A DNA stretch of 64,000 nt, taken from assembly GCF_964355755.1 (NCBI RefSeq), contig NC_092673.1:5456001-5520000 (forward strand). Reading direction: 5' to 3'. This document shows, in pieces, positions 1 through 59,205 of this stretch. The translations under genes were made by a program, and so were the position numbers. The notes under the pieces are model-generated. The model was not told where the DNA came from, did not search any database, and saw nothing but the letters and a program-made list of their open reading frames with translations. The DNA is from Antedon mediterranea. Lineage: Eukaryota > Animalia > Echinodermata. Position 1 is the first letter of the stretch, and every line of letters begins with the position of its first letter.

Positions 1-779
1 TGACATTAATGTTATTCTTATTAATTGTTGATGATTAATGCAAATGTCAAATTAAACTATTAATCACAATGTACTTTAAATATCTCAAATTCTGATATTA
101 GCTGATTCAAACAACAATAGGCATTTACAATTACCATAGTTACTATGGTATTAAAGGTAATAGGTTAGATAATCCAAACCTTTTGAAAACACTACAATAG
201 ATAGTTCTTTGTAATGCCATGTTCGATTCCTAAAGAATGTAAGCTACTGTTTAAATCAATGTATTTGCTGAGTAAATGAACAAATACTTCTTTTGTAGAT
301 TGGTCTATTTATTGTCAAGTGTCCTAGTGAAGGCAGGTACTATACTACAATAGTTATCACAGTGATGCAGCCACGACAAAATAAAGTGGTCAGGTTTTTG
401 CAAGAAAAAGGGAAGAATCTCTGTTAAAGCCACTGAGTTGTCAAAGGCCTCAGGTTGAAACCTTACCAACCATACTGGTGGGTATCGCTATGGCCCTGTA
501 TCACTAAAGATATAGGATTTGAAATGGTATAAAAAGTGCAAAAGGAATTGATGAACAGATACTAATGTCCTATCTTTTGCATTATAATTATCAAAACTCA
601 AGGGAAAGGATGGGGGATGGTGCTGGCTGGCCAACCACATTTTATCCGCCTATTAAAATTACTGTATTACATTAATATACTCTAGAAGCACCAGATTTCA
701 CTAAATTGATAGTAGAATTGGACACAATACTACTGAACCATTTGTAGTACAGCTAAACTTATTTGGTTTAATTATTTAC

Positions 780-3652
780 CTGCTGGTGAGCGTGCATCAA
801 CAGAGCTAACAAATATTCCCAAGCCGTGTTCTGAGCCACCTCTGATGCTAAATCCAAGGCTTCCGCATACCTTCTGTATGGTTATATGACAAAGACTTGA
901 CGGGGAATGCTGGCCTACGTGAACAGATCCTACAGTGTACAAAAAACAAAATACAATACAAATAATATTAGGGGGAAGAGAGAGAGTTTGTATGGTTATA
1001 AAAAAAAATGTGGCTATTGCATGCATCCATACGCATAGGGTATCAAAATGACCAGAATTATACTGGAAATGTATTTGAAAACTGCACTGGGGTATAGTAT
1101 CTTTGCTTGTAAGCAGTACTAAAGTCGTTTTGTTTAACCAATCATTTATTAAATACAATAATATTCGGGTAATGATATCCCAATCATAATAAACTACCTG
1201 TATGAAGTGAAATTTAAAACAAAGAGGTGTACAAAAAAATTTTTTACAAATTTTGTAAAAGTACAGTATGTTTTTCAAATTCAGGGATGTAGGCCTACTG
1301 TAGCTACCGAAATCTGAAGGTGACTAAATTTTGTTAGTACCAGCAGCTTTCAGGAAGACTTATTTAGGGGGATCTTTGACACCTTTTTTTATAGTATTGT
1401 ATAAATATTGTAGATCATCACAACATTTTTAGAAGATGAAATCAATCGATCAGCCAATTATTTATATTCATTGCAAACAGCTGAACATAAGCCTCAAGTA
1501 AATGATATAATTAAAGGCTGATTTGGTAATCATCACATTTATTGAAGCATAAATACTCATTTGCATATTGATTTATTCCATAGAACAGGTGTTTGTATTT
1601 ACCAGGTAGTATTATAATATTTGATTTTTATCACCTGGAAGAGACACATTTGATGTGTATCACAATAGCATTTGAAATTAACTTACAATGACTCATATAG
1701 TATTAATCATACAATTGTTATTATTATTACAGTATAATTATTATAATATTGTATTCAAAATTACAAAAGTATATAATTAATATCATTATACACGGGTAGC
1801 TGTGTAATCTATGCAGATTGAAACAATTTATTGTTGATTTTTTATTTCTCCTTCCTTGACCATTTTTATCTTTGCTATTAATATTATCATCTTTAATTTT
1901 CTCCAATGCAATTTTTAAATTTCTCGTAAATCTGAAATATAAAAAGATGTATGATCAAATATAATCCAGAACATATCTCCATTTAATTACAGATCATGTG
2001 AGGAGCATGTCTTAAGACAACTTATCATCTGAATGACACCAATGTCCTTAGTAGAAAGGTGTTCATACTGTAGAGTATACAGTAATTAAAATAGGTATGT
2101 ATTGATTTGGTAATGAGGAGATCTTAACTGTAATATTGTAGCTTACTGCATTTCATGATTCACTATACGACTATGTTGCTGTCGAGTCGAAAAGTCATTC
2201 ATAAACAAATGTGAGCATGCACAGATCCGTATAAGAAACCAAGAGAACCAGAGATACAGTATTTACTATAAAAACTACTCAATGTTTTGAAATAATAGAT
2301 TGGATTGTATATTCATTCATTTATTCAAACTAAATGAACAGGCCTATACTACAGTGTACAGTACGTAATTCTGATTCTGAAAAGTGCAAATATCGTACTG
2401 TACCTGTAGCTTGATAATTCCTTTATTAAAAAAATAAACAGAGCACTATTCAACATCTTTCATTTCGTACAAATGTATTCGCCTAGTGGTAAACAGGCTT
2501 TACTGTACTGTAGGTAAAAAACTGAATATGGGGCATTTGATAAATTGTTTTTTCTTTGTATTATATTTAGCCAATAGGAGAGCAATGTTACTATCGTCTA
2601 AGGCATTGCCAACGATAGGGTTCTGAGATATTAATGTACTATACAGTATTTATAAATTCCCATGGAATATACAGTACAGTACATCTCCATGTCTTTGTGA
2701 GGTTGTAATTTGTCATTAGACAAAATCCTGACATATGACAGGACTTGAATCCACGATTGGTAGCCAAGCATCATAACCACAACTCCACTACAGTACTACT
2801 ACTGTAGTCAGTAAATTATTGCACATGTACCAGAAGTGGATTAGTGAGGGATTACCAAACCTAAATCTACGGCAGACAAAACAAAAACCAACCTGTTGAG
2901 TATCTTCTTGGAATAACAAACACGTTTGTACGAACATTAGTATAAATCCTAGCCATAATTGGAATACCGTAATACTTAAAACCATGTGTACAAAACACAA
3001 TAAACTGTAGGCCTGTATATGGTGTGAAAACAGCACACAAGAATCAGTTGCTGCTATGATAGACTATCAACATAAATACTAATACAGCATTGATTTGTGG
3101 TGGCTTTGAATATAGATCACATGATATGGTTGGTAAGTGGGGGAAAATCACCAGATGTTAGTCAATGGCAGCAGAAAACAATAGAGTAGTAACAGAGGTT
3201 GTTAAACTGAATGCAAGGATCTTTTGTTTGATTGATCGTGAATATTAGTTGACAGAGAAATACTATATTACATGTGTTGATCACAATACTTTGCATATTG
3301 AAAATCTTAAATTAAATGGAATGGAAAAAGAAAAATTACCATCCGTATTTTGTTCTCGTTTTCTTCTTGTAGTTGGGGAGTATGGGTGGGCCATCTCAGA
3401 GTATGGAGCTAGTTCATCAAACTGCTGCACGTGCGATGATGGAATCAAGGATCGAATTTCCTTCAAAAGGTCTTTCTTTCGTGGAGTATCAAGCGCACTT
3501 TGCAGGCATATCATCAACTTTTCCACGTCTTTATACGTGTGGTACTGTCGTAAGATATCATGTAGATAATCACGTTCTAGATCGGTTAGTAACGAGTTGG
3601 CTTTTCGTTGGAATTTCTTCAGATTCCGCTGTAGGTCTAACGTGGCAGCCAT
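780..3652 (-). CDS. PDZD7/whirlin-family scaffold protein, first two coding exons seen (3340-3652, 780-929); gene continues beyond window start
   Basis: Exon 3340-3652 encodes a harmonin-homology (HHD) domain (ERDYLHDILRQYH...LLKEIRSLIP). Exon 780-929 encodes PDZ1 (LGFSIRGGSEHGLGIFVS). GT/AG sites and phase 1 match. Acceptor at 3737-3738; probable non-coding first exon ends at donor AAG|GTAAGA at 17049. Confidence 0.85.
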
Positions 3653-3999
3653 CTTGAATAGAAGAAGAAGATCCTTTGTGTTTTCTTTAAAAATGTCTAC
3701 ATTATTTTCCGATCATTGCATACTGAATGTGTAGACCTGCAAATAAAATAAATATTAAAAATAATAATAGACATGATTTACTAAATACTATATTTATTTA
3801 ATCTTGAGTACAGTAATACCAACAATACAGTAATTTCATAACAAAAATAATAAAAATATAAACTGTAGTATCCTTTATATTTTCATCGGAACATTATAAT
3901 ACAGTATTTATTTGTTTAAATTTATAAAATTGTTTTTTCTTGCTCTTTATAAATAATGAATAACCACTTTTAACCATACAGTAGGAAAAATTGCCAAAT

Positions 4000-4480
4000 G
4001 GTCAGGTCGTACTTACAATACATTAAAATGCTACAGTACTGTACCTGTTACACCATTTCATTATAACTATGACAACCACATATCTATCCTAGGCTTATAG
4101 TTAGGTTACCAGTAGTGCGTTTCTTGTTCAACAAGGCAAGAACAATTCCCAACAGTGTAAATGTCGTACTTACTGTAAATTAAAATGCTACAGTACATAT
4201 TACACCATTTCATCAAGAACTATGACAACCACATATCTATCCTCTAGGCCTATATAGTTAAGTTACCAGTAGAGCGTTTTTTGTTCAACAAGGCAAGAAC
4301 AATTCCCAACAGTGTAAACGTCAGACTTTATGTACATTAAAATGCTACAATACATGTTAAACCATTTCATCAACAACTATATGTATGACACCCACATATC
4401 TATCCTAGGCCTATAATAGTTAAGTTACCAGTGGCGCGTTTCTTGTTCAACAAGGCAAGAACGATTCCCAACAGTGGAAA
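4000..4480. repeat. Three diverged tandem copies of a ~155-bp unit
   Basis: ttcttgttcaacaaggcaagaacaattcccaacagtg and acatatctatcct recur three times, about 155-160 bp apart. Confidence 0.9.
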
Positions 4481-4879
4481 TGTGAATATTTTAAAATGGC
4501 AAAAGAATCGACTACTGTTGCAGACACACTTGGTTTGTTATGCCAATCAATTTCATAATCAATAAAGAGCCAAGATAAACAGATAATAGAATTGTCTTAT
4601 AATGAAGCTGATCTCGCTAACATCCTCTGTATCCATTGGTTTCCATCCAAAGTTGATTATATCCATGTAATTTTAATTTTCGCTAATGTAATAAGTTTTT
4701 AAAACCAAATTTTTGGCAGACCTTCAAATTCTAATTTGCCTAAAAATTACACACATTTTTAATTTATCAAAATTTAGTGTTATGAAATATTGTGTAATAA
4801 TTGACATATTTTAAATTATATTACAGTACTGTATGTAGTTTTGTACTCTATAGTACAGTATCTGTAGTACAGTATCTGT

Positions 4880-5240
4880 AGTACAGTACTGTAGTACTGT
4901 ACTGTAGTACTGTACTGTAGTACTGTACTGTAGTACTGTACTGTAGTACTGTACTGTAGTACTGTACTGTAGTACTGTACTGTAGTACTGTACTGTAGTA
5001 CTGTACTGTAGTACTGTACTGTAGTACTGTACTGTAGTACTGTACTGTAGTACTGTACTGTAGTACTGTACTGTAGTACTGTACTGTAGTACTGTACTGT
5101 AGTACTGTACTGTAGTACTGTACTGTAGTACTGTACTGTAGTACTGTACTGTAGTACTGTACTGTAGTACTGTACTGTAGTACTGTACTGTAGTACTGTA
5201 CTGTAGTACTGTACTGTAGTACTGTACTACAGTACTGTAC
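4880..5240. repeat. 13-bp minisatellite (TACTGTACTGTAG)n, about 26 copies
   Basis: Near-perfect tandem array read directly; ORF 4811-5362 is its artefact. Confidence 0.97.
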
Positions 5241-5340
5241 TTGGAGTATCTGTACAATAGTATTAGCTTATCAGTATGCAGACTTTTATGTATTGTACAG
5301 ATACTGTAATAGTTATTTTTATGCCTGTCTATCTCCACTG

Positions 5341-6129
5341 TACGGAAGCCCGTTCGGGCCACAAGTTAACTATATTTTAAAAGCTGTTATCTGGCGGCCG
5401 CCACTTAATTATCTGGCGGCCGCCACTTAATAATTAGTACATGTCCCCGTCACGTGACATGTACGTGCATTGGATCAGAGGCGATGATGCATGCAATAAA
5501 ATAGGGAACGCCAGTATTCTCTTCACATGCGGTGACGTCATGCTCTCAAACTATTTCATTAATGCTCTTATACCGCACACCATTATCTTATACTCATTCC
5601 TAATGCTCTTATGTGCATAACTGATGCTCTTATAGTTATACTCATTCTTAATTCTCTTATACTCTTTCTTAATGCTCTTATACTCTTTCTTAATGCTCTT
5701 ATACGGGTCTTATACTCATTCTTAATGCTCTTATACTCTTTCGTCATGCTCTTATATGACTTTCCATGCTCTTATACTCTTTCGTCATTCTAAACTATGC
5801 GACGTATCATGCTCTTATGAGGTAATTAAAAATGCATCGACACATTCTCGACGCACGTGGCGCACTACTTCCAATGTAAAATAATCGACGGCTGTACAAA
5901 TAAGTCTAGGAAAGTTACAATTATCTTAATTATCTGGCGGCCGCCAGATAATTATCTGGCGGCCACCAGATAATTAAGTGGCGGCCGCCAGATAATTAAG
6001 TGGCGGCCGCCAGATAATTAAGTGGCGGCCGCCAGATAATTAAGTGGCGGCTGCCAGATAATTAAGTGGCGGCCGCCAGATAACAGCTTTTAAAATATAG
6101 TTAACTTGTGGCCCGAACGGGCTTCCGTA
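5341..6129. mobile_element. Non-autonomous DNA transposon, probably IS3EU-type
   Basis: Long TIRs TACGGAAGCCCGTTCGGGCCACAAG... / ...CCCGAACGGGCTTCCGTA; 6-bp TSD CCACTG (5335-5340, 6130-6135); subterminal 22-bp repeats containing GCGGCCGC; internal tgctcttata repeats. Confidence 0.85.
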
Positions 6130-6835
6130 CCACTGCTATTTTACAATATGCATAAATAGATCAATACACAATTAACATTTTCTATGCTTTTACCAACTTT
6201 CAGAAAAACCTTAACAAAATTTACATGAATACATGTTAACAACAGCAGTGAAAGAAGTCATAAAAAAGATTTTGAACCATGGAGATACACAGTAACAGTA
6301 CTCTGTCTCAATGTCTATGCATTGCCAAACCCAGGAATGTAAAACACTGTATGGGTAAAATGATGTAATGTGTTACTGTATAATTTAATGGGGGTCCTCC
6401 TCTCCCTCTGGATCCACCTTTTATTATTTTATGTTTAAGTACAGAATATCTTCTGAAGTACTGTATTAAAAAAAGTGGTAAAATTATTTTTTAAATGAAA
6501 TTTTATTGCGATACCTACAGTACAGTACTGTAAGCTGTGATGAAGTGTACAAAATTGTATCATTGTATTAGAAAGTCTATGAATTGATTTTCTATTATGA
6601 GGTTGGCTAACGATGTCATGATCTACCGAAGCAGAATAAGTAGAAGGCTTTGCAGTTTTAAAAACATCGATGGAAATCATTCGCACATTTGTACGCTAAA
6701 TTTGTAATCAATCATATCAATGTCTCACAATTATTACGTTATAAACAACGCATTTCTAATATACTGTATCATACTTCCTGAGAGACATATTTACACCTAC
6801 GGTAGAAAATATCAACAATTTTTGTTTATAAAAAA

Positions 6836-7630
6836 TGTGACGTCCATAAACCCCCGGACTAATTTGGAATAGTCCAAGTACACAAGGTGACAGGGTGGGC
6901 ATAGGTGGCATGAGGTCATTAAAGATTTGCCACATATGAGTGTAACATCTATAAAATCCTTGTCATCATTTATTGTGTATTACTATTCTTAGGTACGTAA
7001 ATATTATTCTCTGTATTATTTTGTATTATAGAGATAATTTCCATAATGTAGTTATTGTTCAGGATGATAGATATTACCCTTGGGATAGATATGTTGTTCA
7101 TACAATATGGTTACAGTTGCGGTTCTACACCGTATAATGAGAGGGTAAGCCAAGGTTAACATTCTTTCCAGGAGGGAACGTCCTTGGATTCAGCATGGTT
7201 ACTATGACAACTAAGATAAGAGTATCATTGTGTTATTTTATAGGTTACGTATGAAGTATAACTTGATCATAGTGACTTTGAGAGTTATATTTGGTATAGA
7301 CACAAGTACAAGTCATGTATTATTTATACTGTATTGATGTTCACCTTGGTATAATAGGAAGGTGAAGAAGTGTTACAGGTTTATTACTTATTTAACACGA
7401 CCTTAGTTGAGAGATAATGCTTCATCGTTAGTATTTTTAGAGTTATGAAATACAGTAGCAGATGTACTGTAGTTTTAAGCTTACTATGTTTGATGATAAG
7501 AGGTCCATTAAAGATTTGCCACATATGAGTGTAACATCTATAAAATCCTTGTCATCATTTATTGTGTATTACTATTCTTAGATCTCTCAACGACGGAAAA
7601 CATCCCTGTACTCATTGACCAGGGGTAACA
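6836..7630 (+). repeat. 5' LTR (795 bp)
   Basis: Matches the 3' LTR by eye except for one 5-bp indel; internal ~75-bp direct repeat. Confidence 0.97.
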
Positions 7631-7633
7631 TTT

Positions 7634-7652
7634 TGGAGGCACTGCCCGGATT
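7634..7652 (+). promoter_or_regulatory. Primer-binding site, probably tRNA-Thr
   Basis: TGGAGGCACTGCCCGGATT, 3 nt after the LTR; resembles the complement of a tRNA-Thr 3' end (TGGAGGCACCGCTGGGATT, recalled). Confidence 0.6.
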
Positions 7653-7663
7653 CATCTGAAACT

Positions 7664-8782
7664 ATGGCTGAAAGAGAGGAACAGAATGTGGAAGGTGACG
7701 TCAATCCGGTTGAGAATCAGGACGATAATGGTGCTGAGGATGCAGGAGTAAATATCGGTTTACAGGAGGAATATGAAAAAAAGCTACGGGACATGATGGC
7801 AGCGCATGAAGAACAACTGAAGAAACTACAACAGAGCTTTAAAGAAGCTGCAAATGCTAAGCCGACGACAGTAGTTTCTAGAAGGGACTTCAGGATGAGT
7901 GGCCAAATTGGTGAGCCAGGCCAGAAAGACCGATTAGCATTTGGAAGTTTGATTCACCAAATTGAATCTGGCAAGAGCCGAGGATACAGTGATCAGGAGA
8001 TTATTGAAGCTGTTATTAAAGCAATAGTACCAGGTGCGTCACTCCGGAGCTACTTAGAAGGTAAACTGGGGTTAACTCTGCCCAAACTAAGAGCTATCCT
8101 TAGGGCTCACTTTGGAGAGGAAAATGCCACAAAATTGTTTCACCGACTATCAAGTGCGGTACAAGATCCAAAAGAAACCCCACAGACATTCCTTCTGCGG
8201 GTACTGGATTTAAAACAAAGAATCTTGTTTTCTTCGCAAGAAGAAAACTCTGGGATCAAGTATGAGCCAAAGCTGGTTCAAAACATGGTCAGGCAAGCCC
8301 TTCTAACTGGTTTCCAAGAAGACGAAATCCGATCCGAGATAGCACCACACCTCAAACGAAACATCGAGGATGAGGAAGTAATGGATGCGCTTAATATAGC
8401 GGTAAACAATTACCAGGAACGTTTGGCTAAACTCAAAGCAGGAAGGACTAAAGTTTGCAAAGTGGATGTGGATGAATCTTTGAGAAAGGGATCAGGTTGT
8501 GAAAAGCAAAATGAAAACAAACGTTTTGAACTATTCACTCACGAGATGAGGGACATGTTACAGGCCGGATTAAATCAAATTCGACAAGAAGTGGGTGTAA
8601 TTGGTCAACAACAAGCCACGACCCAGAACAACAACCACGGAAACCGGCCTGCAGTTCGGGCATGTGATGGATGTCGCACACGTGGTACCAGATGCAATCA
8701 CTGTTTCAAGTGTGGAAGCAGTGAACATTTTGCTCGTGGTTGTCGATCCCAACGCAGAAATCAGGCGGGAAACGAGCAGTGA
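7664..8782 (+). CDS. gag: Gypsy Gag (capsid plus CCHC zinc knuckle)
   Basis: 372-aa ORF just after the PBS; QDPKETPQTFLLRV capsid-like motif; CFKCGSSEHFARGC knuckle. Confidence 0.93.
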   Translation: MAEREEQNVEGDVNPVENQDDNGAEDAGVNIGLQEEYEKKLRDMMAAHEEQLKKLQQSFKEAANAKPTTVVSRRDFRMSGQIGEPGQKDRLAFGSLIHQIESGKSRGYSDQEIIEAVIKAIVPGASLRSYLEGKLGLTLPKLRAILRAHFGEENATKLFHRLSSAVQDPKETPQTFLLRVLDLKQRILFSSQEENSGIKYEPKLVQNMVRQALLTGFQEDEIRSEIAPHLKRNIEDEEVMDALNIAVNNYQERLAKLKAGRTKVCKVDVDESLRKGSGCEKQNENKRFELFTHEMRDMLQAGLNQIRQEVGVIGQQQATTQNNNHGNRPAVRACDGCRTRGTRCNHCFKCGSSEHFARGCRSQRRNQAGNEQ

Positions 8783-11700
8783 TCACCCAGACGGGACGAG
8801 GCGTGATCAATTCTACCGAAAAGTCCCCTTATGTAAATAGTTTGCCAGGATACATAAATCAAATAGGACATATTAATCCTGTTCACCATCAAAGACTTGT
8901 CAAACTGGTGGGCCGAAAGTGTATCGTAAATTGTAAATTAAATGATGTAAATTGTAAGGTTCTCTGGGACACCGGAGCACAAGTTTCATTGTTGCCGACG
9001 ACCTGGTTAAAGACACATTTTCCAAACCAGCAACTGAGAGACCTAAAGGAACTACTGGATGATACAAACCTTGAGCTAAGTACAGCCGATGGAACGAATC
9101 TTCCATTCGACGGATGGACTGAGGTGTTTGTTGAATTATCGTTGGATGGAAAATCCACACAGCAGGTCAGAGTTCCTTTTCTAGTTACTAAAACAAATCT
9201 AAGTGAACCAATAATCGGTTACAACGTTGTGGAACATATAATAATGGGTCCGGCTCGACTACATCCGAATGCCATAAAAGCGTTTCCAAAGTTTCATAAT
9301 AAGAAGGTAGACTGTTTAATAAATTTGGTCAAGGAAAACACTGGCACTATGGGCACTGTTACGTTCGACGGAAACGATGTTGTCATCAGGAAAGGAGAGA
9401 CAGTTTCAATAAAATGCCGAGCCTATATGGGAACAAAAGATAAAGTTATGGCTATGTTTGAACCGAGCGTTGAAAATCTTCTATCAATTGGACTAGAAAT
9501 GTACGATACTGTTGTTGAAATACAAGGAAATTCCTGTAGACTGTATGCGCATAACCCAACACCACACGAAATTATGCTGAGACGGAGAATAACCGTTGGA
9601 CATGTGGAAGGAATACAAAGCGTATTGTTACCTACACAATCAAGAACGGAGTATAGCAAGAAAAAAGGCGACTCTCAAAATCCAACCACCAAAGTTACAG
9701 TAGGAGCTACAACCTCGGAAGGCGGTACGGACGAATTATGGGACCCGCCTGTGAGTCTAGACCACCTTACCTCGGAACAACAGACGGTAGCCAAACAAAT
9801 GCTACGCGAGGAGTCAGCTACTTTCTCAAAGGGAGACTTTGATATTGGGTGCTCCCCTGAATTACAAATGAGCTTACAACTTACTGACAATATCCCTGTA
9901 CAGAAATCATATACTTCAATCCCTCGACCGTTGTATGAAGAGGTAAAACAGTACATTCATGAACTTTTAAGCAAGGGGTGGATCAAGAAGTCACAGTCTT
10001 CATATTCATCTCCAGTAGTATGTGTCCGAAAAAAGGACGGCAGCCTTAGATTGTGTTGTGATTTCCGTGGACTTAATTTAAAGACTGTACCCGATAGGTA
10101 TCCGATACCAAGAATGCAAGATGTACTCGATGGCCTCAGTGGACAAAAGTGGTTCTCAACTTTGGATCAGGGAAAAGCCTATCATCAAGGATTCATATCT
10201 CCCAATAGCCAACCCCTAACCGCTTTTGTGACTCCATGGGGATTATTTCAATGGAACAGGATTCCATTTGGTTTGAAAAACGCACCTGCGGTATACCAAA
10301 GGTTTATGGGAACAGTACTAGAGGACATTAATCATCGAATCTGTGAGGTGTACTTGGATGATGTCCTGATCTACAGTCAAAATTTTCATGAACAAGTGGA
10401 GAACATTCGAAAAGTTCTGCAACGATTCCGACAGCACGGTGTAAAAGTCAAACCTGAAAAGTGTAGCCTCTTTCGGAAAGAAGTGCGGTACCTAGGGAAG
10501 GTAGTATCCGCAGAGGGGTATCGACCAGACACCAAAGACATTGTTGCCATGACGTCATTAAAACAAAAGACACAAAGGACAGTTGGCGATGTGAGGAAAG
10601 TACTGGGACTGATTGGTTACTACCGACGTTATATAAAAGATTTCTCAAAAAGGGCGAAACCCATTTTTGACCTTCTGAAGAAAGATTTACCCACGTCACA
10701 AACATCGTCAAAGAAGATAAAAGGTCAAACATCATCAAAAACCCCTATTGAATGGACAAGAAATCACCAAAGCATATTGGATAAATTCATCGATGAATTA
10801 GTGAGTGAACCCATATTAGCTTATCCAGATTTTTGTTCACCATTTGTGTTACATACAGATGCCTCGATGGATGGTCTTGGAGCAGTACTTTATCAAAGGC
10901 AAAACGGAAAAATGCGAGTTATTGGGTATGGTTCCCGATCTCTAAGTCCCTCAGAGAAGAATTACCACTTACACTCCGGTAAACTCGAATTTTTGGCTTT
11001 GAAATGGGCAGTGACTGAACATTTCCGTGACTACTTGTACCATGCACCGTCATTCACGGTTTATACAGACAACAACCCGCTGACCTACGTTCTGACATCG
11101 GCGAAACTGAATGCCACAGGTCATCGATGGGTGGCAGAACTTGCCGATTTTCACTTTGACATTAAATACAGGCCGGGTAAATCTAATATTGATGCTGACG
11201 TTCTGTCGAGGATACCTCTTGATATCGACCGCTACATCAAAGAATGTATTTCATGTATATCAACGGATACTATCAAAGCTATGTCAAACGGAGTGTTTGC
11301 ACTGCAATCCGGCCAAGTGACGCTACTTTCTGGAGTTTCAGCAAACCCAACCGATAATGAACCAGTAACACCTGTGACCAAACATTCCTCGATATTTTGC
11401 CCCGCAGATATCCTCCAAGAACAGCGTATGGATGATACAATTTTAGCGGTAATACCATTTGTCGAAAGAAACCGACCGCCAACTAAAAATGAAAGAACGA
11501 AGTTATCACTTAAAACCAACCTATTACTACGACAGTGGAAAAAGTTGAGACTAGATGACAACGGAAATCTTCGACGAGAAACATCGGATCGGTCACAGCT
11601 AGTTCTACCGCAACAACTAATTTCTAGAGTGCTAACGGAGCTGCATGACAACATGGGTCATTTGGGCGTAGAGAGAGTACTTCAAATGGCACGGGACAGA

Positions 11701-13268
11701 TTTTATTGGCCAAAAATGCAAAAAGACATTGAGGACTACATCACCAAGCGTTGCTCCTGTATTAAGAAGAAGAAGCCGGTGAGAAATGACAAAGCTCCAT
11801 TAAGACCAATAAGTACAACTGAACCATTTGAGCTGGTCTCTATTGACTTCCTTCACCTAGAGCGTAGTAAGGGCGGGTATGAGTATATCCTAGTGGTTAT
11901 GGACCACTTTACCAGATTCGCAGTGGCCTACCCAACTACAAATAAGTCTGGAAAAACCGCAGCCGACAAAATATTTAATGATTTTTGTTTAAAGTTTGGG
12001 TTTCCTAAACGCCTACATCATGACCAAGGACGGGAATTTGAGAATAGTTTGTTTTACTACCTCCAGAAATATTCAGGTGTGGAACATTCCAGAACAACAC
12101 CATATCATCCACAGGGAAATGGGCAAGTGGAGCGGTTTAACAGAACGTTACTCTCCATGCTCAGAACACTGGAGGATGACCAGAAACCGGATTGGAAGAA
12201 CCATTTGACCAAACTTGTACATGCTTATAATGCAACCAAGCATGACACGACGGGTTTCTCTCCTCATTTTCTTTTATTCGGAAGACAGCCAAGATTACCT
12301 GTTGATATACTTTTCAACTTGTCGCGATCGGGTCCAGAGAAAACTACTCCACAGTATGTGCAAGCATGGAAACGGCAGATGAAGGAAGCATACCAGATTG
12401 TCAGAGAACGGGCAGGAATAACAAGTGAGAACAGCAAGCAACGGTACAATCGGAAAGCCCACGCCATTACTTTACACCCAGGAGATCGCGTATTAGTAAG
12501 GAAACTGGCACAACCAGGTGGTCCTGGAAAGTTGCAAAATTATTGGGAAAATGATATCTTTAAGGTAGTACGACAGCAAGGGGATTTACCAGTATATATC
12601 GTAAAACCCGAATGTGGAGTTGGCCGGACTCGTACACTACACCGAAATCATCTTCTACAGTACCTTGTGATTCTTTACCGTCAGAAGAGCGACTACAACC
12701 TAAACCAACATCAACCAAAAAGAAATGCATGCCGAAGACACAGAATGCACAACACACTATGACAGATAGCGAGCTGACAGATGGCGATGACGAGGATAGA
12801 TGGGATAGTGTAGGCCAAATTGAACCGACATTGGATAACAGGGTAAATGAAACAGATTCTTCAAGTGATACATCAGCGATTTTAGATCCGAATGCAACTG
12901 CATTTATACCACCCCGACTACAGTTTGTCGATGAAACTGACGTACCGCAAATTCAGGATCTGGCACCAAACATGGATGAACAGCAATGTTTCGCTGATGA
13001 CAGGTCGAATGAGGATGAATTAGTTGATCAACTACAGGAAAATGAGAACAGAATTTCCAATACTGGTAGTGTAGTAGAGGAAGCAGAAGACCGGCCAATC
13101 CGAAATAGGCGTCCACCTCAAACACTGACTTACAGCACCATGGGAACGCCTGACCCATCTTGTATGAAGATAACAGAAAGCATCGACAGAACAAGCGAAA
13201 AGCAGCGGAAACTGAATTTTATATCGTATCTATTTATACCCCAGTCGTGTCGGTTGTTCGGCAGTTAG
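8767..13268 (+). CDS. pol: Gypsy Pol (protease, RT, RNase H, integrase), reached by -1 frameshift; C-terminus disrupted by a 5-bp insertion at 12658-12662
   Basis: LWDTGAQVS, YLDD, LHTDAS, HHCC and DDE integrase (SIDF, HHDQGREFE, GQVER). ORF 8740-12762 joins ORF 12612-13268 when CAGTA is removed. Confidence 0.95.
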
Positions 13269-13403
13269 TTTACCGATGATATGGCCGTGATGTATTATAT
13301 AATATTTTTTTCGTTCTTCAAACGTGTTTTCCTTTCTCATTATGTACATATTCGTAGATTAAGTTTGAAATGCCGTTACGTCATTTTTTTTAGTGGGGGA
13401 GGG

Positions 13404-14203
13404 TGTGACGTCCATAAACCCCCGGACTAATTTGGAATAGTCCAAGTACACAAGGTGACAGGGTGGGCATAGGTGGCATGAGGTCATTAAAGATTTGCCA
13501 CATATGAGTGTAACATCTATAAAATCCTTGTCATCATTTATTGTGTATTACTATTCTTAGGTACGTAAATATTATTCTCTGTATTATTTTGTATTATAGA
13601 GATAATTTCCATAATGTAGTTATTGTTCAGGATGATAGATATTACCCTTGGGATAGATATGTTGTTCATACAATATGGTTACAGTTGCGGTTCTACACCG
13701 TATAATGAGAGGGTAAGCCAAGGTTAACATTCTTTCCAGGAGGGAACGTCCTTGGATTCAGCATGGTTACTATGACAACTAAGATAAGAGTATCATTGTG
13801 TTATTTTATAGGTTACGTATGAAGTATAACTTGATCATAGTGACTTTGAGAGTTATATTTGGTATAGACACAAGTACAAGTCATGTATTATTTATACTGT
13901 ATTGATGTTCACCTTGGTATAATAGGAAGGTGAAGAAGTGTTACAGGTTTATTACTTATTTAACACGACCTTAGTTGAGAGATAATGCTTCATCGTTAGT
14001 ATTTTTAGAGTTATGAAATACAGTAGCAGATGTACTGTAGTTTTAAGCTTACAGTACTATGTTTGATGATAAGAGGTCCATTAAAGATTTGCCACATATG
14101 AGTGTAACATCTATAAAATCCTTGTCATCATTTATTGTGTATTACTATTCTTAGATCTCTCAACGACGGAAAACATCCCTGTACTCATTGACCAGGGGTA
14201 ACA
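13404..14203 (+). repeat. 3' LTR (800 bp)
   Basis: Copy of the 5' LTR with an extra CAGTA at 14052-14056. Confidence 0.97.
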
Positions 14204-14732
14204 AAAATAAGATGGCGTGTTATTTGGTCAGCCATTTTACGGCGGTTTTAAACTAAAATTTAATTTATATATCTCTCATGTTCTACTACTGTAGGAATTC
14301 AAATCTAATTTTTGCTGTGTTGTTTATTCACATTTAAAGGATTCATACAAAATATTTTTAAAATTTATTTTTAAAAGCTTCCATATCCATTATAAAACCT
14401 TCAAAATTGTGTACAGTAGTGATAAAAAAAATATCAGCAAATTTTATGGAGTTACATGTATACATTCAGTCTCCATGTGAAATATTTAATAGTCAGCAAC
14501 ACAATACTTCCATAATGTTACAAACAGCAGTCTCTTCTCCATGGCAACAACAACTGTTATTTCAACAAATAATACAAGAAATATTTTCAGACATTTTTGC
14601 TCATATTAAATAAGTAAATTACACAATTCCAAAGTAATACTGTATATAAATTTCAATCAGATGCTATAATCGTTACTAAATTGTTTAAAATAAGGATTAT
14701 TATGATTGTTACTGTATATCATAATGTTATTA

Positions 14733-14752
14733 CAGGGAGATACATCTCCCTG
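14733..14752. mobile_element. 20-bp P-type mini-hairpin or excision footprint
   Basis: CAGGGAGATACATCTCCCTG flanked by 7-bp direct repeat GTTATTA. Confidence 0.65.
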
Positions 14753-15782
14753 GTTATTATTAATACTGTACAAAATTGTTACAGTAGTACTATTCATATG
14801 GCAATAATGCATATGTTTTGATCATGTTCAGAAAGACCTTTTGACTTGACAGCTGCTTAGTACGGCATAAGGGCATGTCAATATCATTTAAAATGAACGA
14901 TTTATGAATCATCAACACTAACCATATAAAATTAAAAATTCTAGTATACAGTGTAATCAAGGCAATGTAACAGCTCTCAGATCAAAGGGTTTAACTGTGG
15001 CTGCGACACAATCATGATAAACCCCAGCCTTACAGACACTGCATGCCACGGAGAATATGTACAAAGTACAGTACTGTTAGTCTTTGTCGCAGCCAGACCA
15101 AGGATCAAAGGACTGTTATGAGTTTTTATCCTGGCAAGATGAGCACACTGTCCTGTTGTTAGATTGCCATGTTGTAATATGAGATTAAAAGATGCGAGTT
15201 TAGTGGTGACTGAACAGTAATCTCAGTTGAATTAGGAAGAGTACAGTAAAAGCATTGAGATGCTGCAAAAGGAATAGCAGTAACAATGAACAAACACATT
15301 CATTGCGGTAATAGAGTACATTTCAGTCAGTGCCGACTATGGCTAGACATAATACTGTAGACCCATTCAAGATTTGATATTTGATGCTAAAAATGTTTAT
15401 GGTAGATGAACAAGTACATAACTACAGTACATTCAGATTTTAAAGGATATCTTAAATTACATAATAGTTTCTCTTTAAATCAACAATTGTTGTGTGTAGC
15501 AGCTAAGTGACAGAAAAGTTTATGTTAAGAATAGGTGTAAATTGGTATCATTGCATCAAGTTAAGTACAGAATTACTGCAGAAGAGACCAAATGTCTTTT
15601 GTTCAGACATGGTTTAAAGGTCTTAACTTTTTTCTTAACTTTTTGGTTGAACTAAAATAACGTACTATTTACTTATACTGTACTGTATACAGTATAATGA
15701 CATATAATTTACAATGCCTGCTGTATTCAAAGATAGGTATAAAGTACAATACAGATTATACAGTACATCATAATGTATGATA

Positions 15783-16275
15783 TGATTCAATTCAATTCAA
15801 TTTATTTATTGCTGCAAATGCCATCAAGGGCTAATATCCGCTTAAACATACTACATACAAACATATACATATTTACATTTAAAATTTAAACACATAAAAA
15901 TTATAGTCATTACTATACTGTTGTAGTTATTATTTTTTTAAATTATTGTAATTGTTGTTTTTATGATTATTGTTATTGTTATTATAATAATTAATATAAA
16001 TGTAATAAATTATAGGTTACATCTTAAGGGCAGTTTTATTGTGAAGCATTGTGAAGCACAGAGAAGGAAGACACGTTAAGATGAAACGATTGAGCGAGTG
16101 AGAGTGAGTGAGGTAGAGTAGAGTGAAGAAAACGAGTAGAGTGAAAAAAACGAGTAGTATGTCCTTTAAAGGGAAGATAAGAAAAGTGTCGATTATGGCG
16201 AAGGACGAACAGGAGGAAGAAATGAACGAAGAGGGTGTTGAGGAGACTGCGTGATAGCACAAAGAAATTTAGGTA
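15783..16275 (-). mobile_element. 5'-truncated CR1/L2-clade LINE 3' end
   Basis: Minus strand reads ITQSPQHPLRSFLPP / YLPFKGHTTRFFHS across a frameshift (typical ORF2 tail), then an AT-rich 3' UTR ending aataaataaa(ttgaa)n. Confidence 0.5.
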
Positions 16276-16352
16276 AAAAATACTGATGCCTTAAAGAGAG
16301 GGAAATAACAGGGCTTTATTTCTTCATGCTTAAATCATAGAGAAACTTAAAC

Positions 16353-16379
16353 CATGGACCTATAAATTAGAGGTCCATG
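16353..16379. mobile_element. 27-bp P-type mini-hairpin or excision footprint
   Basis: CATGGACCtataaattagaGGTCCATG flanked by 7-bp TSD CTTAAAC; near-identical copy at 50783. Confidence 0.7.
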
Positions 16380-17048
16380 CTTAAACTAAGTAAGGATCAC
16401 ACTTAGCGTTAACGTACATTGTTGATTTAATCAGTTTATTGTGTGAGTATTAACAATGAGGTAAAAAGGGTATTCATTCACTATTGGCTCTTTTATTAGG
16501 GATTAGAGACTTATCCCTATGACATCAGATCATGGAGAAATTCCTTTAGACCACCCCCTGTACATGTACTGTAGGCGTACAATACATTTGCACATGAAAT
16601 AACAAATACAATCAAACTTGTAGATTGTGTTTTGTGATGAAAATCAATACAGTAATTAACATGTCATTGCAATATATTTGAATTCAAAAAATAATTAATA
16701 CAAATTTTAAAATCCTTTTAAATTTAACTACAGTACTTGTTTATAATATAAATATTCCCAGGGAGATCCCTAATATTCCGTACACATATTTTATTTCAAA
16801 TTAATTGTTCAGATAGTGATAATTCTGAAATGGTGCAAATCGCTCATATTACGCTACTACATCGGTTAATAAATAATACTAGGGCCTAGGCCTAGGCTAT
16901 AATATGCATTGTAGTATTACCACCAGACTGAGCTAAAAAACTAACCAACTAACTCTCTGGGCCCCTACCTAATATTATTCGTGACAAATGCAAAAAACAA
17001 CTTGCTCTAACATAATCAACATATCTAGTATATGCATCCACTTCTTAC

Positions 17049-17353
17049 CTTATTGATAACAAAACATGTTCTCAAAATTAAACGTTAAATACAGTATTCT
17101 CATTCTTAATTTTTGACCGCGTATCCATAGACGCTCAAACGAAAGTGACTTACCCTATTAACCCCGTGTTAATATTACGCTCGTTCATCATTGGTTGATT
17201 TGTCAATTGCGTAACCTTTGAACTTGATATAGAGTAAAAACACACAAAACAAAAACACGACTGTGTGTGAGTCCGCGAGACTTTGTTTACTGTTTGAAAT
17301 ATCAAATTAAATTGCAATTTTACATTTTATATGCATTTAAATAACTTGGTAAC
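17049..17353. promoter_or_regulatory. Probable bidirectional promoter, PDZ gene / FAM204A
   Basis: Minus-strand donor at 17047-17048, CCAAT box (attgg ~17190), CpG-richer patch, FAM204A ATG at 17354. Confidence 0.5.
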
Positions 17354-18978
17354 ATGCTTTCAATATTACCGCCCGATATGAGCGATAGTTCAGACGATAT
17401 ATCATCATCTGATCAGTCGGAAAGCGATCATCTTATAGCTAGGCCTAGGCCGCAGCAGGATGAAATGGATTCGTCGTCGTCGATGACAGAAAATCAAAAG
17501 GGGAAAACAGTCGAGCCTCCACGAGGAGTATCAGGAACTCATTGGGAGGTAGGCCTAGCCTAGATAATTTATCAATAAATCCACAAAATCAATCTTACGG
17601 TATATATGATCATATGAAAATGAGTAGGCCTAGGCTAATTTATATTTTCTTTGTTTTTTTATATTTGTATGTAGAAATTTTTAGAACTTAAAAAAGGTAG
17701 AGAAGCGATCCCTAGTTCGTCTACCACAGAAGTACTGCAGAAAAATCGTAAACGAAAGCGAAAAAGGAATCGAAAGAAAAAAGACAATGTAGAAGGTCTG
17801 TCGATAAAGTAGCCAATTTTTTTCTATTCAAAATGAGTCACATAAGCACATATACTTTATACTAAATAATTAACCATTCGGCATTAACTTTTTTTTACAG
17901 AATGTTGTAGAAAAAAAGAAGTTGGCCAACTTTCTGGATCCAGTCTACCGATTGGTCCTCAACTTCCAGGACAATCCTCCAGGCATCTAGGCCCATTACC
18001 AGGTCAGCCACCTGGACAGGAGTGGAAAGATGTCAAGCAATATTTAGGAGTCTATGATCGTTTCAAAGGCGTTGACTATGGAAAAGTATCAGAAATGGTG
18101 AGATATGTATAAAACATTAAGGTTGGTCTATAAAGCTTTGTCTACACTATCAAACTAGTTTGTGCCCAAATATGGTAGTTCTATGACATCATCCTCATCA
18201 TGTCTATATGATAAATAATACTTTTAATAGCCAAATGTATTTATTTTTATTTGAAGTCCGATACTTTTTAATGTTTTATATATTTTATTGTATTGCATCA
18301 AGGAAAACAAATTTCATGTTCGCCTTGTTGTGTTCATGATAATAAAGATTTATCTTATCTTATGTATGTATGTCTATACATCACATTTTTTTGTCACAGA
18401 AACTAAAGTTTGATAGTGTAGACAGAGCTTTAAGATCCCAAACATTTTTTGAAAGCCGGATTCAAAATTCTCCCAAATGTATGAGTTTTCACAGATCCAA
18501 TGTCATAAATTTCCAGACAATTAAAGTATTGTATGTTACAAAGGTACACTTCAATTAGGTACCATAAGTAATAGTTAATAGCCAAGTGTATTTATTTTTA
18601 TTTGAAGTCTGGGTTGGAGAAAGAGATAAACAGTGCAATAAAAACTAAAGATTTTCAAACTGCGGAGAATTTGAGTGATCGTCTATCCAACAGAGACTTT
18701 GGTACCAAAATTCACGAAGCCATCAAAGCCAAGGAATATGTTGAAATCAAAGAGGCAAGTTCTGTACATTTTTCTGTTTCCCCCAAAATTGCTGATATTC
18801 TTCTGCCCATCATAGTAGAGGGCGCTATAATATTTTTGCTTTAATTGAAGAATAAAAATGCTTTTATTTCCAATCACTTTAGAAAGAAAAAATGGAAAAA
18901 TCAAAAAAGAAAAAGAAGCAGAAGCTAGCTTGGAGATTTGAGGTTAAAGAAAGATGGGAAATGAAAGGAAATATGTAA
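17354..18978 (+). CDS. FAM204A: FAM204A homologue, 5 exons (17354-17548, 17675-17795, 17901-18097, 18608-18754, 18883-18978), ~251 aa
   Basis: WKDVKQYLGVYDRF, SGLEKEINSAI...LSNRDFGTKI, C-terminal KKKKQKLAWRFEVKERWEMKGNM; phases consistent; intron 4 is GC-AG. Confidence 0.9.
18134..18429. mobile_element. PIF/Harbinger-like MITE family A (TIR AGCTCTGTCTACACTATCAAACT), copy with internal insert
   Basis: TIRs at both ends, TAA/TTA flanks; further copies or fragments at ~22622, 27731, 41963, 42490, 44330, 52250, 62905, 63770. Confidence 0.8.
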
Positions 18979-19740
18979 AAAAAAACATATTTCATCTGTC
19001 ATCCCCAAAAATATGGTATTATAAAAGTTATAATTTTCATCGTTTTGTAGCCATACTCACTCATATCTCTGTAAAATAAGGACTGTATTCATTTTTCTGA
19101 GATTTTTTTCCCCTTTCTTGCAAAAACTAAGATACTGTAGTACTAATAATGTTAATGATCATGTTAATCACAAACATCAGTTAAATAAAATACAGTGTAC
19201 AAAATGTTTCCATTCATCTTCTTTAACATCATAGTTATGTTTTATAATTTTATAGGTTAAAAATAATATTTATGAATAAAACTATTAATTATTAATTCTT
19301 CCCAAAAGATTAACTAATGAATACACTAAAGTATTAAATATATATTTTTTTGTCAAATATGGTAATTGTTTAAAACAATTGATAAAGCTGAAATTAAGGG
19401 AGTTTAAATAATTAACAAGTTTAATAAAAAATCAAATGGCCCACTTAAAATAAATCTTTTTTTATAAATTATAATTAGAACCATGATTACTAAACCATAT
19501 ATTTCCAACAATTTTTTTTTTTCGAAGGAAAATATATTTGACTTAATTAGTATTTAAAATAAAAATAATAAACTAAAATATTTATATAAATACATTTTTT
19601 GTATATTGTACATCAGAATTATTATATATAAACACATCAGGCAATGAACATTAATTCGAAACCGCCCGGTGATATACTGAAATTTAATTAATTAATTTGA
19701 AACGATAAAGATGAGGAAATCTGTGAGAATGAGAAAAAGT

Positions 19741-19812
19741 CGCCCCAACCGAGACTCGAACTCGGACCGCCTGCTTGATATGCAGATGTCCTAACCATTA
19801 GACCACTGGGGC
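19741..19812 (-). tRNA. tRNA-like gene, anticodon ATC (Asp); possibly a pseudogene or element-borne
   Basis: 72 nt folding into a full cloverleaf (GCCCCAG/TTGGGGC, GTCT/GGAC, TCTGC/GCAGG, CCGAG-TTCGAGT-CTCGG), G discriminator, TTTTT just downstream; atypical A32 and A34. Confidence 0.6.
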
Positions 19813-20006
19813 TTTCATGGTATTGTTCAAACTCGATTGGAAAGCGACTCTTTAACATTCTCGGCGTGGTATGGCGGAACAGTACTAGTCCTCAGTTGTA
19901 CGCACGCGCACCAGAGATCAAATTGATACGCCCTCATCTTTAGCTACACCGGGGGGGGGGGGGGGGGGGCACACTAAACTATTACATGATTATTTATCAC
20001 ATTATT

Positions 20007-23000
20007 TTATTCTTGATATTTTAATAACTTGCACCCCTTAGTTTTATAGGCTGGCCATCTGCACTTAGGACAGCAATGATTTCCCCCTCTCAGCCATGTA
20101 ACAATGCAACCATGGTGGTAAACATGTCCACATGGCAACCCACAAACGGTGTCGTTTTGGTGGTACACTTCCAGGCATATGGCACACTCCAAACATGTAT
20201 TGTAGTTACTGGTAGTACATTCACGTTCTCGATAAACGGTACTTGAACCTTTATCATGTGATCTTGAATTGACATTTTGATTGGAGTCCGTCACTTGATT
20301 GACGTCACCATGATTTACTCTGCCTGAAGCTGGCATAACATCGTCATTTTGCGAAAAAGAAACATTCTGATTATCAAGCGAGTTACTACTACAAGAACTA
20401 TTCAATTTGTTGACATCCGTTCCATTTTCCTCATCAAATGCAACATTTTCCGTTCCTTTCCCACCGCAAAATTTCCACGTTGGTAGGTTTGAAATGTAAT
20501 CCATTGGAATAACTGGGTGTAACCAAAAACCAGGAACCGCAAGTCGTTCAATTAACATGTCCAATCCTTCTTCCACATGCACTCTATTCAAACGAGGGCC
20601 GCGTAAATTTGACGAAGGCCTGATAAGAAACATGTAATAATCTTGAATAACTCTATGTAACCAAGCTGCATTTGATTCTTGCGATACATTCGTCAATCTC
20701 TTACGATATTTTTCGATAAACCCAATAACACAACAATATATTAAGAATGTTAACAAAAGAAATGTCGTATAGTGAGAGTACACGAGAAGATCACTACGTA
20801 TATAACACATAAAATCAGATATCAGAAATTTACGAAGGATTTTGTTGCCGAAATTCCAAACAGGTTTAAGAACGGATAGTTGTAAAGTTCCAAGAAACGG
20901 TAACCAAAATGCCAAAAAGCTGAAATTTGATTTTCCAAATGTCCATGAAAAATAAACGAATCGTTTCAATATACCACCTTGTGTTATGAAGAAATCAAAA
21001 ACACAAAGAATATTCACAGCAAATAAACTCCATATAAATGCATCATTAATTTCCGGAGATAAAGTTTTTAGATACAGAACAAGTTTATCATAAGACATAT
21101 ATTCACCTGCGTGTATTCCGTAACGTACATCACCTTCTGATGTTGCAATTAATATAGATGGAATTCTCGTTTTAATTTTTTTGGAATTTTTAATTTCAGA
21201 AAACTGTCTTTTATTTGTTGATATAAATGCAAACTTAATCCTTCCTGTAAATTTTGCACCAAGTGATGAGAAAAATAACGGTGGTTCACTGGCACTCGAA
21301 AAATAAGCGATGCGTACTGGAAATTGATTGGGACGATTTCTTGCCATTTCCATCCACGGTTTAGCATTATCAAGATTGTAAAACCTTGTGACCTTTGACA
21401 TTAAATGTGCGTTTAATCGATCAAGTATGTAGGATGCTGAACTTGGTTTGTAATAGTGGAACATGGTCACATGATCTTTGTACGTCTCGCCCTGAGGCAT
21501 TGCCAGCAGAACGCTTTGTTCCAACCAGTTTTTCATCAAACAGAAACTGAAAGAAATATAAATTATTTTTCCATAGTATTTTTGTGTAAGGGCGTGTGGC
21601 GCAGTGTGATGGACGTTCGACTACTGATCGTGAGATTGAGGTTCAAATCTAATGCTCGTCGCATTGCTTGTATCCTTAGGCAAGATACTTTACTTACGTT
21701 TGCCTCTCTCCACCCAGGTGTATAAATAGGAACCCTGTTAGTGTTAGATCAAGACACAACTTTGTGCTGGTTACTAGCTGCATTATGGGAGTATTTTTCC
21801 ATACGTGTTTGATCAAAAAAATGACTGGGGTAATAATGTTCAGCGGTTAGAGGTTTCACAACATTAGGCGCTATATAAATCCACGATATTATTATTATTT
21901 TAAAGTAAAATAGAAAAGTAAAATCTGTATTTTTAATAGAAACTAAAACTTATAATAATAATAATAATAATTTTCTGATAATGATCAAATAAAGATCGAA
22001 ACGTTGAATCACGGCTTGCTTCACGTTATTGGGATATGTTATTTAAACATAACCAGTGCATCTATTGGTTAAATAAATGTAATATAGTTTTTTTATATAG
22101 TGGTATGAAAAACTATGTTTGTACAACTTTTTATGTATTACTGTATATTTCATTGTGTTGTTATTAGTAAAGAGCAGTTATTCAGTTTGGGTTTTTTTTT
22201 CTGGCTTCTTATCTATCTTACTTTGTATCCAAACTACAGTTAAATGTTCCTGTTCTTATACCAAATTTGGACACTTTTCTTCTAATTGTTTTCCATGAAT
22301 TTTTAGAATGCAAGGGTGGACGATCTGGAGGTACAACCTGAAAAATGTAAAAATATTAGTCAAATAAAGGAACATCAGACTAGCATGTGAGAGGCATGGG
22401 TTTAGGTCATATTGCTTAAGAAAAGAAAGAACATTTGCTCTCATTGCCTCATCCATCAGATGTAAAGCCGCTGGTCCCATGTATTTATTGCTCTATAAAG
22501 AACTTGGTACACTATTCGAAAAGAGCAGGGGATCGTCTCCAGGTGTGCTGATGATTTCTGAGTTGATTTCTTGGACATTAATTTGTTCAATTATCGACAT
22601 TCGAAAGTTCTTTAATTCTAAAGCTCTGTCTAGACTATCAAACTTTATGTGTCCATATATGGACATGATGTCATATCAATACCATATTTGGGCATATCAC
22701 TACTATATTTAGGCATATCACTAACATATTTGGTCATATCACTATCATATTTGGGCAATTTACCTGAATCACCCAGACACTGTCTTTCTTGTCCTCTACT
22801 TCCTCATAGAAGTGTCCTCTAGACCTGAACAATGTGGTATCATTTTCTTCCAATTCACCATCTTCCTGGATTTCCATCAATTCACCATCATGGACATCAC
22901 CTACACAATGAAAAATAAAGATGAATAAAATCAAAGTATATTTTCTTGTAGTTTTAAATAGTTATTAATTTTTACCAAAACAAAAGGTTTTCACTTATAA

Positions 23001-23535
23001 AGAGACATAATAAAAATGTTAAATCTAACCAAAAACCAATTGACAATGAGCTTCCGGTTTCTGGTTTTTCTTTAAATTATGACTTATCGGGTAAATAGTA
23101 TTTTTGTAAATAAATATTCTTTGACATTAAAATGAAAAAAAATTATTTTCAAATTTTTGTCCAGGGAAACGGCCGAGACAAATATCTTTAAGCATGTATC
23201 TACCACACATGTATTTATTAATGCTACATTAATTAGTTTGGAGGGTGAAATGCAAATCTGAATTCTTATGTCCGAAAAAATAAAGTTAAATGTTACATAC
23301 CTGATTCAGCGATCAAATCCGACAGTTCTTTTTTCTCAACGACCTTCTCATAATTAATGCCCCTCACATCCAGCAGGTTTTTCAGTTTGTTAACGCTGAG
23401 CGTCACTGGATCAACAAGTTGAGTAGCTACAAACCCTGCTTCATACCACACTAGTAATTCACAGAGGCGTAGCATGGCTGACATTAGTACCAAATAGAGT
23501 AAAAGTAGCAGAATCTTCAGTACCATAGACATCAT
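20007..23535 (-). CDS. RNF103: E3 ubiquitin ligase RNF103, 4 coding exons (23301-23535, 22764-22900, 22222-22337, 20007-21546), ~675 aa
   Basis: LVWYEAGFVATQLVDPVTLS...RG..Y...EKK; HFYEEVEDKKDSVWVIQ; KVSKFGIRTGTFNC; LIERLAVPGFWLHPVIPMDYI; C-terminal RING-H2 ending CPKCRWPAYK; phases consistent. Confidence 0.95.
21590..21900 (+). mobile_element. tRNA-derived SINE with Deu/CORE-like centre and L2-like tail
   Basis: A box tggcgcagtg, B box ggttcaaatc, ctctccacccaggtgtataaat core, gcgctatataaat...(tat)n tail. Confidence 0.7.
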
Positions 23536-58815: not shown

Positions 58816-59205
58816 TTAAAGATATATTGTCCCCCTAAAAAAATAATAATTGTTTACATTTTTTGTTGTTGTTGTTGAATATGCCATTTTAATATCACAT
58901 AATAGTTATTTTTTGTTGTTGTTGTTGAATATGCCATTTTAATATCACATAATACCGTAGTTATTCACTTTGACCAAAAACTGGATAAAATTTTCTGAAA
59001 AATGTAATTTAAAGAAAAATAAATTGTAAATTTGGTTGAAATCATGGAGTAACTCCATGGTTGAAATTAACCATTTCTTTTGTCTTTTTATGAAATAATT
59101 ATTTTTTTTTAATTTTTGATTCTACAGAAGTGAATAACTTGATTAAAACTGCAAAATGGTCTATTCAAAATCTGATTTTATTAATCTTTAGACAATACAT
59201 TGTTA
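58816..59205. mobile_element. TTAA-flanked Kolobok-like MITE
   Basis: ttaaagatatattgtcccc ... gacaatacattgttaa; related copies at ~43410-43650, ~49440-49735, ~54120-54300. Confidence 0.6.
59043..59059. mobile_element. 17-bp P-type mini-hairpin or excision footprint
   Basis: CATGGAGTAACTCCATG flanked by 8-bp TSD GTTGAAAT; absent from the sister MITE copy at ~49580. Confidence 0.7.

Follow-up and report, generated by a model that had tools for sequence, protein, structure and literature searches.

Two five-letter insertions resembling transposon excision footprints in a Ty3/Gypsy retrotransposon of Antedon mediterranea

We analyzed a 64-kb stretch of DNA from the feather star Antedon mediterranea, the whole of which is called the window here. 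Gene exons lie at 775-3712 (harmonin/whirlin-like), 42929-48054 (TAF1B) and 50356-51270 (an MFS transporter), and the TAF1B exon is 100% identical to an A. mediterranea protein over 90% of its frame. The minus strand carries three long single-frame RING-finger genes (20007-36923), the third of which ends in a 94-nt tandem array (32100-35748). Two repeats of very high depth are found at 18129-18432 (a 300-nt inverted-repeat element) and at 19524-19900 (a tRNA-like, SINE-like repeat in which a tRNA-Asp is called at 19741-19812). Positions 6836-14203 are occupied by a complete LTR retrotransposon, the parts of which are listed in Table 1.

Table 1. Parts of the retrotransposon, and TA-flanked insertions and elements in the window
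Feature	Position	Strand	Remarks
TA-CAG-TA-CTG-TA	4032..4043	+	157-nt tandem repeat, copy 1; copies 2 and 3 are five letters shorter
TA-flanked inverted-repeat element	5343..6127		785 nt, CGG...CCG ends; TA-targeting resident, not CAG-ended
5' LTR	6836..7630	+	795 nt, TG...CA ends; target duplication AAAA directly before
Primer-binding-site-like stretch	7631..7652	+	TGG three letters past the 5' LTR; putative role
gag	7664..8782	+	open frame; C-terminal zinc knuckle weak (E 0.008, under the Pfam cut-off)
pol frame	8725..12762	+	protease, reverse transcriptase, RNase H, integrase; final 34 residues out of frame
Slippery heptamer GGGAAAC	8767..8773	+	inside the gag/pol overlap; putative role
TA-CAG-TA in pol	12656..12662	+	five letters absent from sister copies; shifts the frame at the end of the integrase C-terminal domain
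Stranded integrase-tail frame	12663..13268	+	201 aa, acidic; PAM2-like at aa 74-83; R-x-R-R-P-P-x-x-L-T-Y at aa 147-157
Purine-rich tract	13393..13403	+	abuts the 3' LTR on its 5' side
3' LTR	13404..14203	+	800 nt; equal to the 5' LTR apart from five added letters; AAAA directly after
TA-CAG-TA in 3' LTR	14050..14056	+	single TA at 7482 in the 5' LTR; sister contigs without the five letters
TA-CCG-TA	58953..58959	+	five more letters than paralogs; fits the ends of element 5343-6127

The Pfam domains of pol follow the Gypsy order (protease, reverse transcriptase, RNase H, integrase), the best solved relative of pol is the Ty3-G Gag-Pol (PDB 7q5b, E 7.7e-91), and named protein relatives carry Gypsy integrase-like annotation. 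By domain order and kinship, the element is a Ty3/Gypsy LTR retrotransposon. No env frame was found: the 135 nt between 13268 and 13404 hold no frame of 100 aa, which sets the element apart from the env-bearing (errantivirus-like) Gypsy elements. Within each LTR, a stretch of about 80 nt is duplicated (approximately 6912-6992 and 7500-7580 in the 5' copy). The LTR pair shows 0 substitutions across 795 aligned nt, and the element looks recently inserted.

Directly after the HRNHLL motif of the integrase, the pol frame meets the letters TA-CAG-TA, continues for 34 further residues and stops at 12762. A second frame starts at 12663 and stays open through 13268. The HRNxLL motif is present in 110 of the best 120 relatives, which were chosen from 2742 at E<=1e-30. 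In these 110 proteins it is directly followed by P-C in 85 cases, by a first P in 91 and by Q-C in 10, and the tail beyond it has a median length of 197 aa (range 35-452). The tails of 109 of the 110 match the window, and for 108 of these 109 the best match lies in the second frame and mostly begins at 12663. The original prediction, that pol has the inserted CAGTA as its only visible lesion and that removing it fuses two open frames into one pol ending at 13268, is thus borne out. All catalytic motifs are present (WDTG, YLDD, the RNase H motifs, HH-CC and D-D(35)-E), and the change of frame between gag and pol at GGGAAAC is, from its sequence context, likely a programmed -1 frameshift rather than a lesion.

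The same prediction took the element to be otherwise intact. This part needs amending: an identical second insertion, which it had overlooked, lies in the 3' LTR. The five letters added at 14050-14056 are the sole difference between the two LTRs. The LTRs of one element are identical when it integrates, so this insertion must, judging from the LTR pair, post-date integration of the retrotransposon; the insertion in pol probably does so as well. Words of the TACWGTA type at 7327, 7451 and 7465 were rejected as recent insertions, as both LTRs share them and they are either inherited or due to chance.

In order to see the insertion sites in other copies of the family, we compared the window with Logan contigs of sequencing runs X1 and X3 (sample S1) and X5 (sample S2); those of X7 (organism B) span neither site. 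In X1, X3 and X5 alike, one contig covers position 12656, and it lacks the five letters at its full depth. The contigs are otherwise close to the window in sample S1, with 0 substitutions over 8366-13287 (X3) and 1 over 8366-13410 (X1), and the X5 contig differs by 37 substitutions and 3 further gap letters over 7793-13514. At both sites, the insertion-bearing form is absent from all covering contigs of these three runs and is seen in the window only, contigs being prone to drop minority variants. The idea that all family members carry the five letters does not hold, given that 3/3 covering runs lack them, and on this comparison the insertion is private to the window copy among the family. A TACAGTA that lies in frame in pol at 9696 shows no gap in the sister contigs; it was dismissed as a recent insertion and is inherited or a chance word.

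The contigs also bear on the state of the element in the samples. Contigs of S1 run up to 14203 out of sequence at odds with the LTR end, and two S1 contigs start at 6807, the expected branch point of a 31-letter-word graph at the left junction (6807-6835). These contig ends, read with the letters themselves unseen, suggest that the retrotransposon insertion is heterozygous in S1. Rough depth in S1 suggests about 3 haploid copies of the element (2.8 and 3.5), depth not being the same as true copy number. In run X5, loose ends occur on both sides of 13974-13981 with an 8-letter overlap, which suggests that an LTR copy in sample S2 carries a hAT-like insertion. Beyond the element, the contig comparison over 14120-19900 is dominated by high-copy repeats, and a gain of five letters at TACWGTA is absent from the 12 of its 24 indel rows that were covered. 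Contigs of X1 and X2 have 5 and 6 gap letters over 14326-15008; these letters were unseen and excluded from the counts. A CTG inserted at 16927 was set aside as a tandem duplication.

Could the five letters be an assembly error, or a somatic variant caught by the assembly? The S1 flank contigs are near-identical to the window (0-1 differences in the X3 pieces), yet none of the covering contigs contains the extra letters. However, contigs lose minority variants and display the majority form only, and with roughly 3 haploid copies in S1 the window copy would be the minority path. Moreover, an error is an improbable source of the window's most enriched TA-NNN-TA word (see below) twice over. We therefore regard an artefact as very unlikely. 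There is next to no chance that the frameshift is native and programmed so as to give a short and a long integrase. The 34-residue frame is indeed open past the site, and a Q follows the motif in 10 of the 110 relatives (of the best 120) as well, but relatives read directly on into the tail, and the absence of the five letters from the family contigs of all three covering runs refutes such a function unless these contigs are chimeric.

To assess what the frameshift costs the protein, we considered the region past the break. No catalytic domain is touched by the break, which comes after the last of them and swaps a 201-aa tail, predicted to be mostly disordered but motif-bearing, for 34 residues. 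In a structure model of the natural relative P0076 (80-sequence alignment, mean pLDDT 76.6), the predicted C-terminal barrel closes with a strand at 642-644, and confidence is 87 through residue 650 and below 50 from residue 655; the break position corresponds to the last residue of this strand. Conservation is 69% for the six residues past HRNxLL, 10-20% in the tail and 46% in its late motif. This motif, R-x-x-P-P-x-x-[LF]-x-Y, is present in 77 of the tails of the 110 relatives (of the best 120) against 0.39 in shuffles, and a PAM2-like pattern in 16 of them against 0.0. PAM2 is the poly(A)-binding-protein-interacting motif. Pfam detects it in the relatives P0080 (E 5.4e-9) and P0002 (E 0.006) and makes no PAM2 call in the tail of the window copy, and our literature search found nothing on PAM2 in Gypsy integrases. 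From the conservation of its motifs, the lost tail appears to be under selection.

The product of the scarred frame would be an integrase with an intact core and a nearly intact C-terminal barrel, minus the last ordered residues and the motif-bearing tail. In Ty3, the C-terminal region directs targeting, as described in the accessible part of bioRxiv 10.1101/2021.07.27.453949, which makes a loss of function plausible for the window copy by analogy. The frameshift would probably impair the copy's own protein, and sister copies could still mobilize it. The earlier statement that the insertion damages the retrotransposon is right in so far as the copy loses conserved residues together with two motifs of the tail, and too strong in that it loses no catalytic domain.

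The seven letters at the insertion sites are not an arbitrary word in this DNA. TACWGTA occurs 163 times in the window compared to 13.5 times in shuffles, and with the tandem arrays and the 3' LTR masked, 90 copies remain against 10.8 expected, an excess of about 8-fold. Both forms are enriched to a near-equal extent after masking (CAG 48 vs 5.5, CTG 42 vs 5.3). Among the 64 TA-NNN-TA words, the next most enriched reaches 3.3-fold and the median word 1.05. A random 5-nt insertion yields TACWGTA with a chance of about 1.4e-4, and this happened twice in the element. The base adjoining the word is biased (p 1.4e-5); all four flanking bases occur. Words with one mismatch are in excess as well (284 vs 212), and six chained TACWGTA runs lie outside satellites. 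The distribution is patchy (chi-square 88 with 15 df, per TA site), with densities per kb of 4.8 at 1-6835, 3.3 at 14.2-20 kb, 0.25 at 20-32 kb, 0.9 at 36-60 kb and 4.2 at 60-64 kb. A 13-nt satellite of 33 copies at 4825-5255 is made of TACTGTA units and was perhaps seeded by chained scars.

Copies lacking the five letters were also sought within the window. Such empty paralogs exist for 4 of the 101 TA-CWG-TA sites, which amount to three loci with one weak match among them, and the 595 sites with other TA-NNN-TA words gave 0; the test is of incomplete sensitivity, as the pair at 58953 escaped it. Both insertions in the element are of the CAG type, and the event at 4037 is of the CTG type. The pairing of 1728 with 15983 is an AT-rich match and was ranked weak, and the variation between 90-, 94- and 95-nt units in the array at 32.1-35.7 kb was discarded, as it is not of the TA-CWG-TA type. 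Two other words are enriched across the window, namely TAGGCCTA (20 vs 0.4, e.g., at 1290, 16887, 23845 and 60543), with an empty paralog in the window for 0 of 22 sites, and TAGCCTA/TAGGCTA (15 vs 4.8). Both may be scars left by a second TA-targeting family, one with GG...CC ends; no pair of a filled and an empty site turned up for either.

These observations point to a cut-and-paste transposon. We consider both TA to TA-CAG-TA insertions to be excision scars of a Tc1/mariner-type transposon with CAG...CTG ends that inserted and then excised, with a probability of about 0.8. The retrotransposon would have integrated first; the transposon would then have inserted at a TA, duplicating it, and excised by staggered cuts, and end-joining would have retained three terminal transposon bases between two TAs. 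The geometry of the sites agrees with this course: the TA is single in the empty form and double in the scar when the 5' LTR is compared with the 3' LTR, the sister contigs with the window, and the copies of the repeat at 4032-4043 with one another. Both cores of such a footprint, CAG and CTG, are present. The available portion of PMC6943129 and of bioRxiv 10.1101/659086 describes TACAGTA and TACTGTA as the canonical footprints of Sleeping Beauty and other Tc1/mariner elements, made by end-joining with three terminal element bases left between two TAs. The lesion is, accordingly, a fresh instance of a textbook footprint, and its description as an insertion of the footprint type is supported. 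The resident CGG...CCG element, together with the TA-CCG-TA insertion at 58953, displays the same geometry for another transposon family.

The transposon itself was sought in the window. A scan for TA-flanked inverted repeats (19/24 match, up to 8 kb) found no CAG-ended element in the 64 kb, and Pfam found no transposase family in 108 open frames (7 + 101) out of the 167 frames of at least 62 aa in the window. As neither a CAG-ended element nor a transposase is present there, we infer the agent from its traces; none of the window's sites was observed in all three states (empty, element, scar). This leaves room for an alternative origin, in which the scars were written without stable insertion, either by an abortive, hit-and-run TA-targeting transposase or by a repair process building the palindrome TAC-W-GTA at a nicked TA. 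It could account for some 80 excess words with no CAG-ended element in 64 kb, for uniform scars without residents, for a word that is palindromic around one base, for the C that follows the TA at all three CWG sites with a filled and an empty form, and for two events in a copy with zero LTR divergence. Nevertheless, we hold it to be unlikely: the C and G are independent of the flanks, with all four flanking bases found, and ordinary excision is documented to give the identical product (available portion of PMC6943129). Furthermore, scars stay while elements leave and so can outnumber residents, and 64 kb is a small sample.

Under ordinary excision, the timing of the two scars calls for comment. 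Two scars beside 0-2 substitutions are improbable at the long-term flank rate, with P(>=2) of 0.001 if 2 substitutions are expected, or P of about 0.05 for one extra scar alone, as the first scar had prompted the look. Some further process is thus needed, be it a burst, local hopping or another, and a recent burst or local hopping could lie behind the two scars in the young copy. Speculatively, their distance of 1.4 kb in a scar-rich stretch may reflect serial local hops.

The original prediction went further and proposed that the process could suppress retroelements. We estimated scars per substitution at steady state, on the assumption that scars decay by substitution alone, and obtained 0.011 for the whole window and 0.035 for the flanks. 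Across the 322 coding TA sites of the element, this corresponds to between 34 (window average) and 104 (scar-rich flanks) frameshifts by footprints for every 277 nonsense changes, with other indels and missense changes still to be added. In both samples, neither site is broken in the sister copies, and the element looks recent. On these grounds, suppression of retroelements found no support. The strongest form of the proposal, that such scars are a main brake on retroelements in the genome, strikes us as improbable. In its favor, any TACWGTA scar inside a reading frame shifts that frame, the sole coding lesion of the window copy is such a scar, and the recent private changes amount to 2 scars vs 0-2 substitutions. 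Against it stand the preponderance of nonsense changes at steady state, the one-mismatch excess, which fits a long-running process, the whole sister copies in two samples and the fact that a single element was examined. More likely, the scars are a by-product with a minor share in what kills retroelements.

Recent rates might be higher than the long-term estimate. From two events, the fraction of private changes that are scars is bounded below, at 95%, by only 0.09-0.16. It is doubtful, although conceivable, that a low-copy or hit-and-run TA-targeting transposase now writes uniform five-base germ-line scars about as often as point mutations arise in favored stretches. If so, scarring would be a leading source of frameshifts and the main route by which young retrotransposon copies are truncated, and LTR pairs would serve as its genome-wide clock. 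Transposon traffic would be a major mutator if the recent rate were as high as this one copy hints, and a modest one at the long-term rate of the flanks.

What the locus offers is a clean natural cut-and-paste scar in an animal retrotransposon, internally dated, the LTR pair proving the order of events for the LTR scar. Excision could likewise account for the TA-NNN-TA word that is most enriched in the window. Across the assembly, LTR pairs and haplotype pairs would yield the rate of scarring relative to point mutation. Our literature search, which covered few subscription journals and no supplements, found no paper on genome-wide TACWGTA enrichment or on natural footprint rates in echinoderms, and no figure for the rate of scars relative to point mutation.

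The retrotransposon itself resembles Ty3-G in its LTRs, gag, PR-RT-RH-IN order, YLDD, HH-CC and D-D(35)-E motifs and predicted C-terminal beta-barrel. They differ past the barrel: Ty3 has a vestigial chromodomain beyond its SH3 fold (accessible part of bioRxiv 10.1101/2021.07.27.453949), whereas the clade of the Antedon element has a long acidic tail, predicted to be disordered, with short conserved motifs. With the footprints of Sleeping Beauty and Tc1, the Antedon scars share the same seven letters, the net gain of five at a TA and the occurrence of both forms in near-equal numbers. Unlike them, the Antedon scars are natural and apparently germ-line, have accumulated to 0.25-4.8 per kb and have no source element in the window. 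In Sleeping Beauty screens, five-base insertion footprints shift the frame in exons, as does the scar in pol, and local hopping has been described (sections seen of PMC4378557). Those events are somatic, engineered and rare, whereas the Antedon case concerns a natural retrotransposon in which the LTR scar can be dated by the LTR pair. In rice, according to the part of PMC4423477 open to us, excision footprints are a source of variation between species, and excision of DNA transposons was likewise deduced from comparisons of filled and empty sites in natural genomes. There, mariner insertions outnumber excisions by about 2.6-2.8 to 1 and the excisions are heterogeneous, 8 of 94 being perfect; in contrast, the scars in the Antedon window are uniform and stand without a matching resident element.
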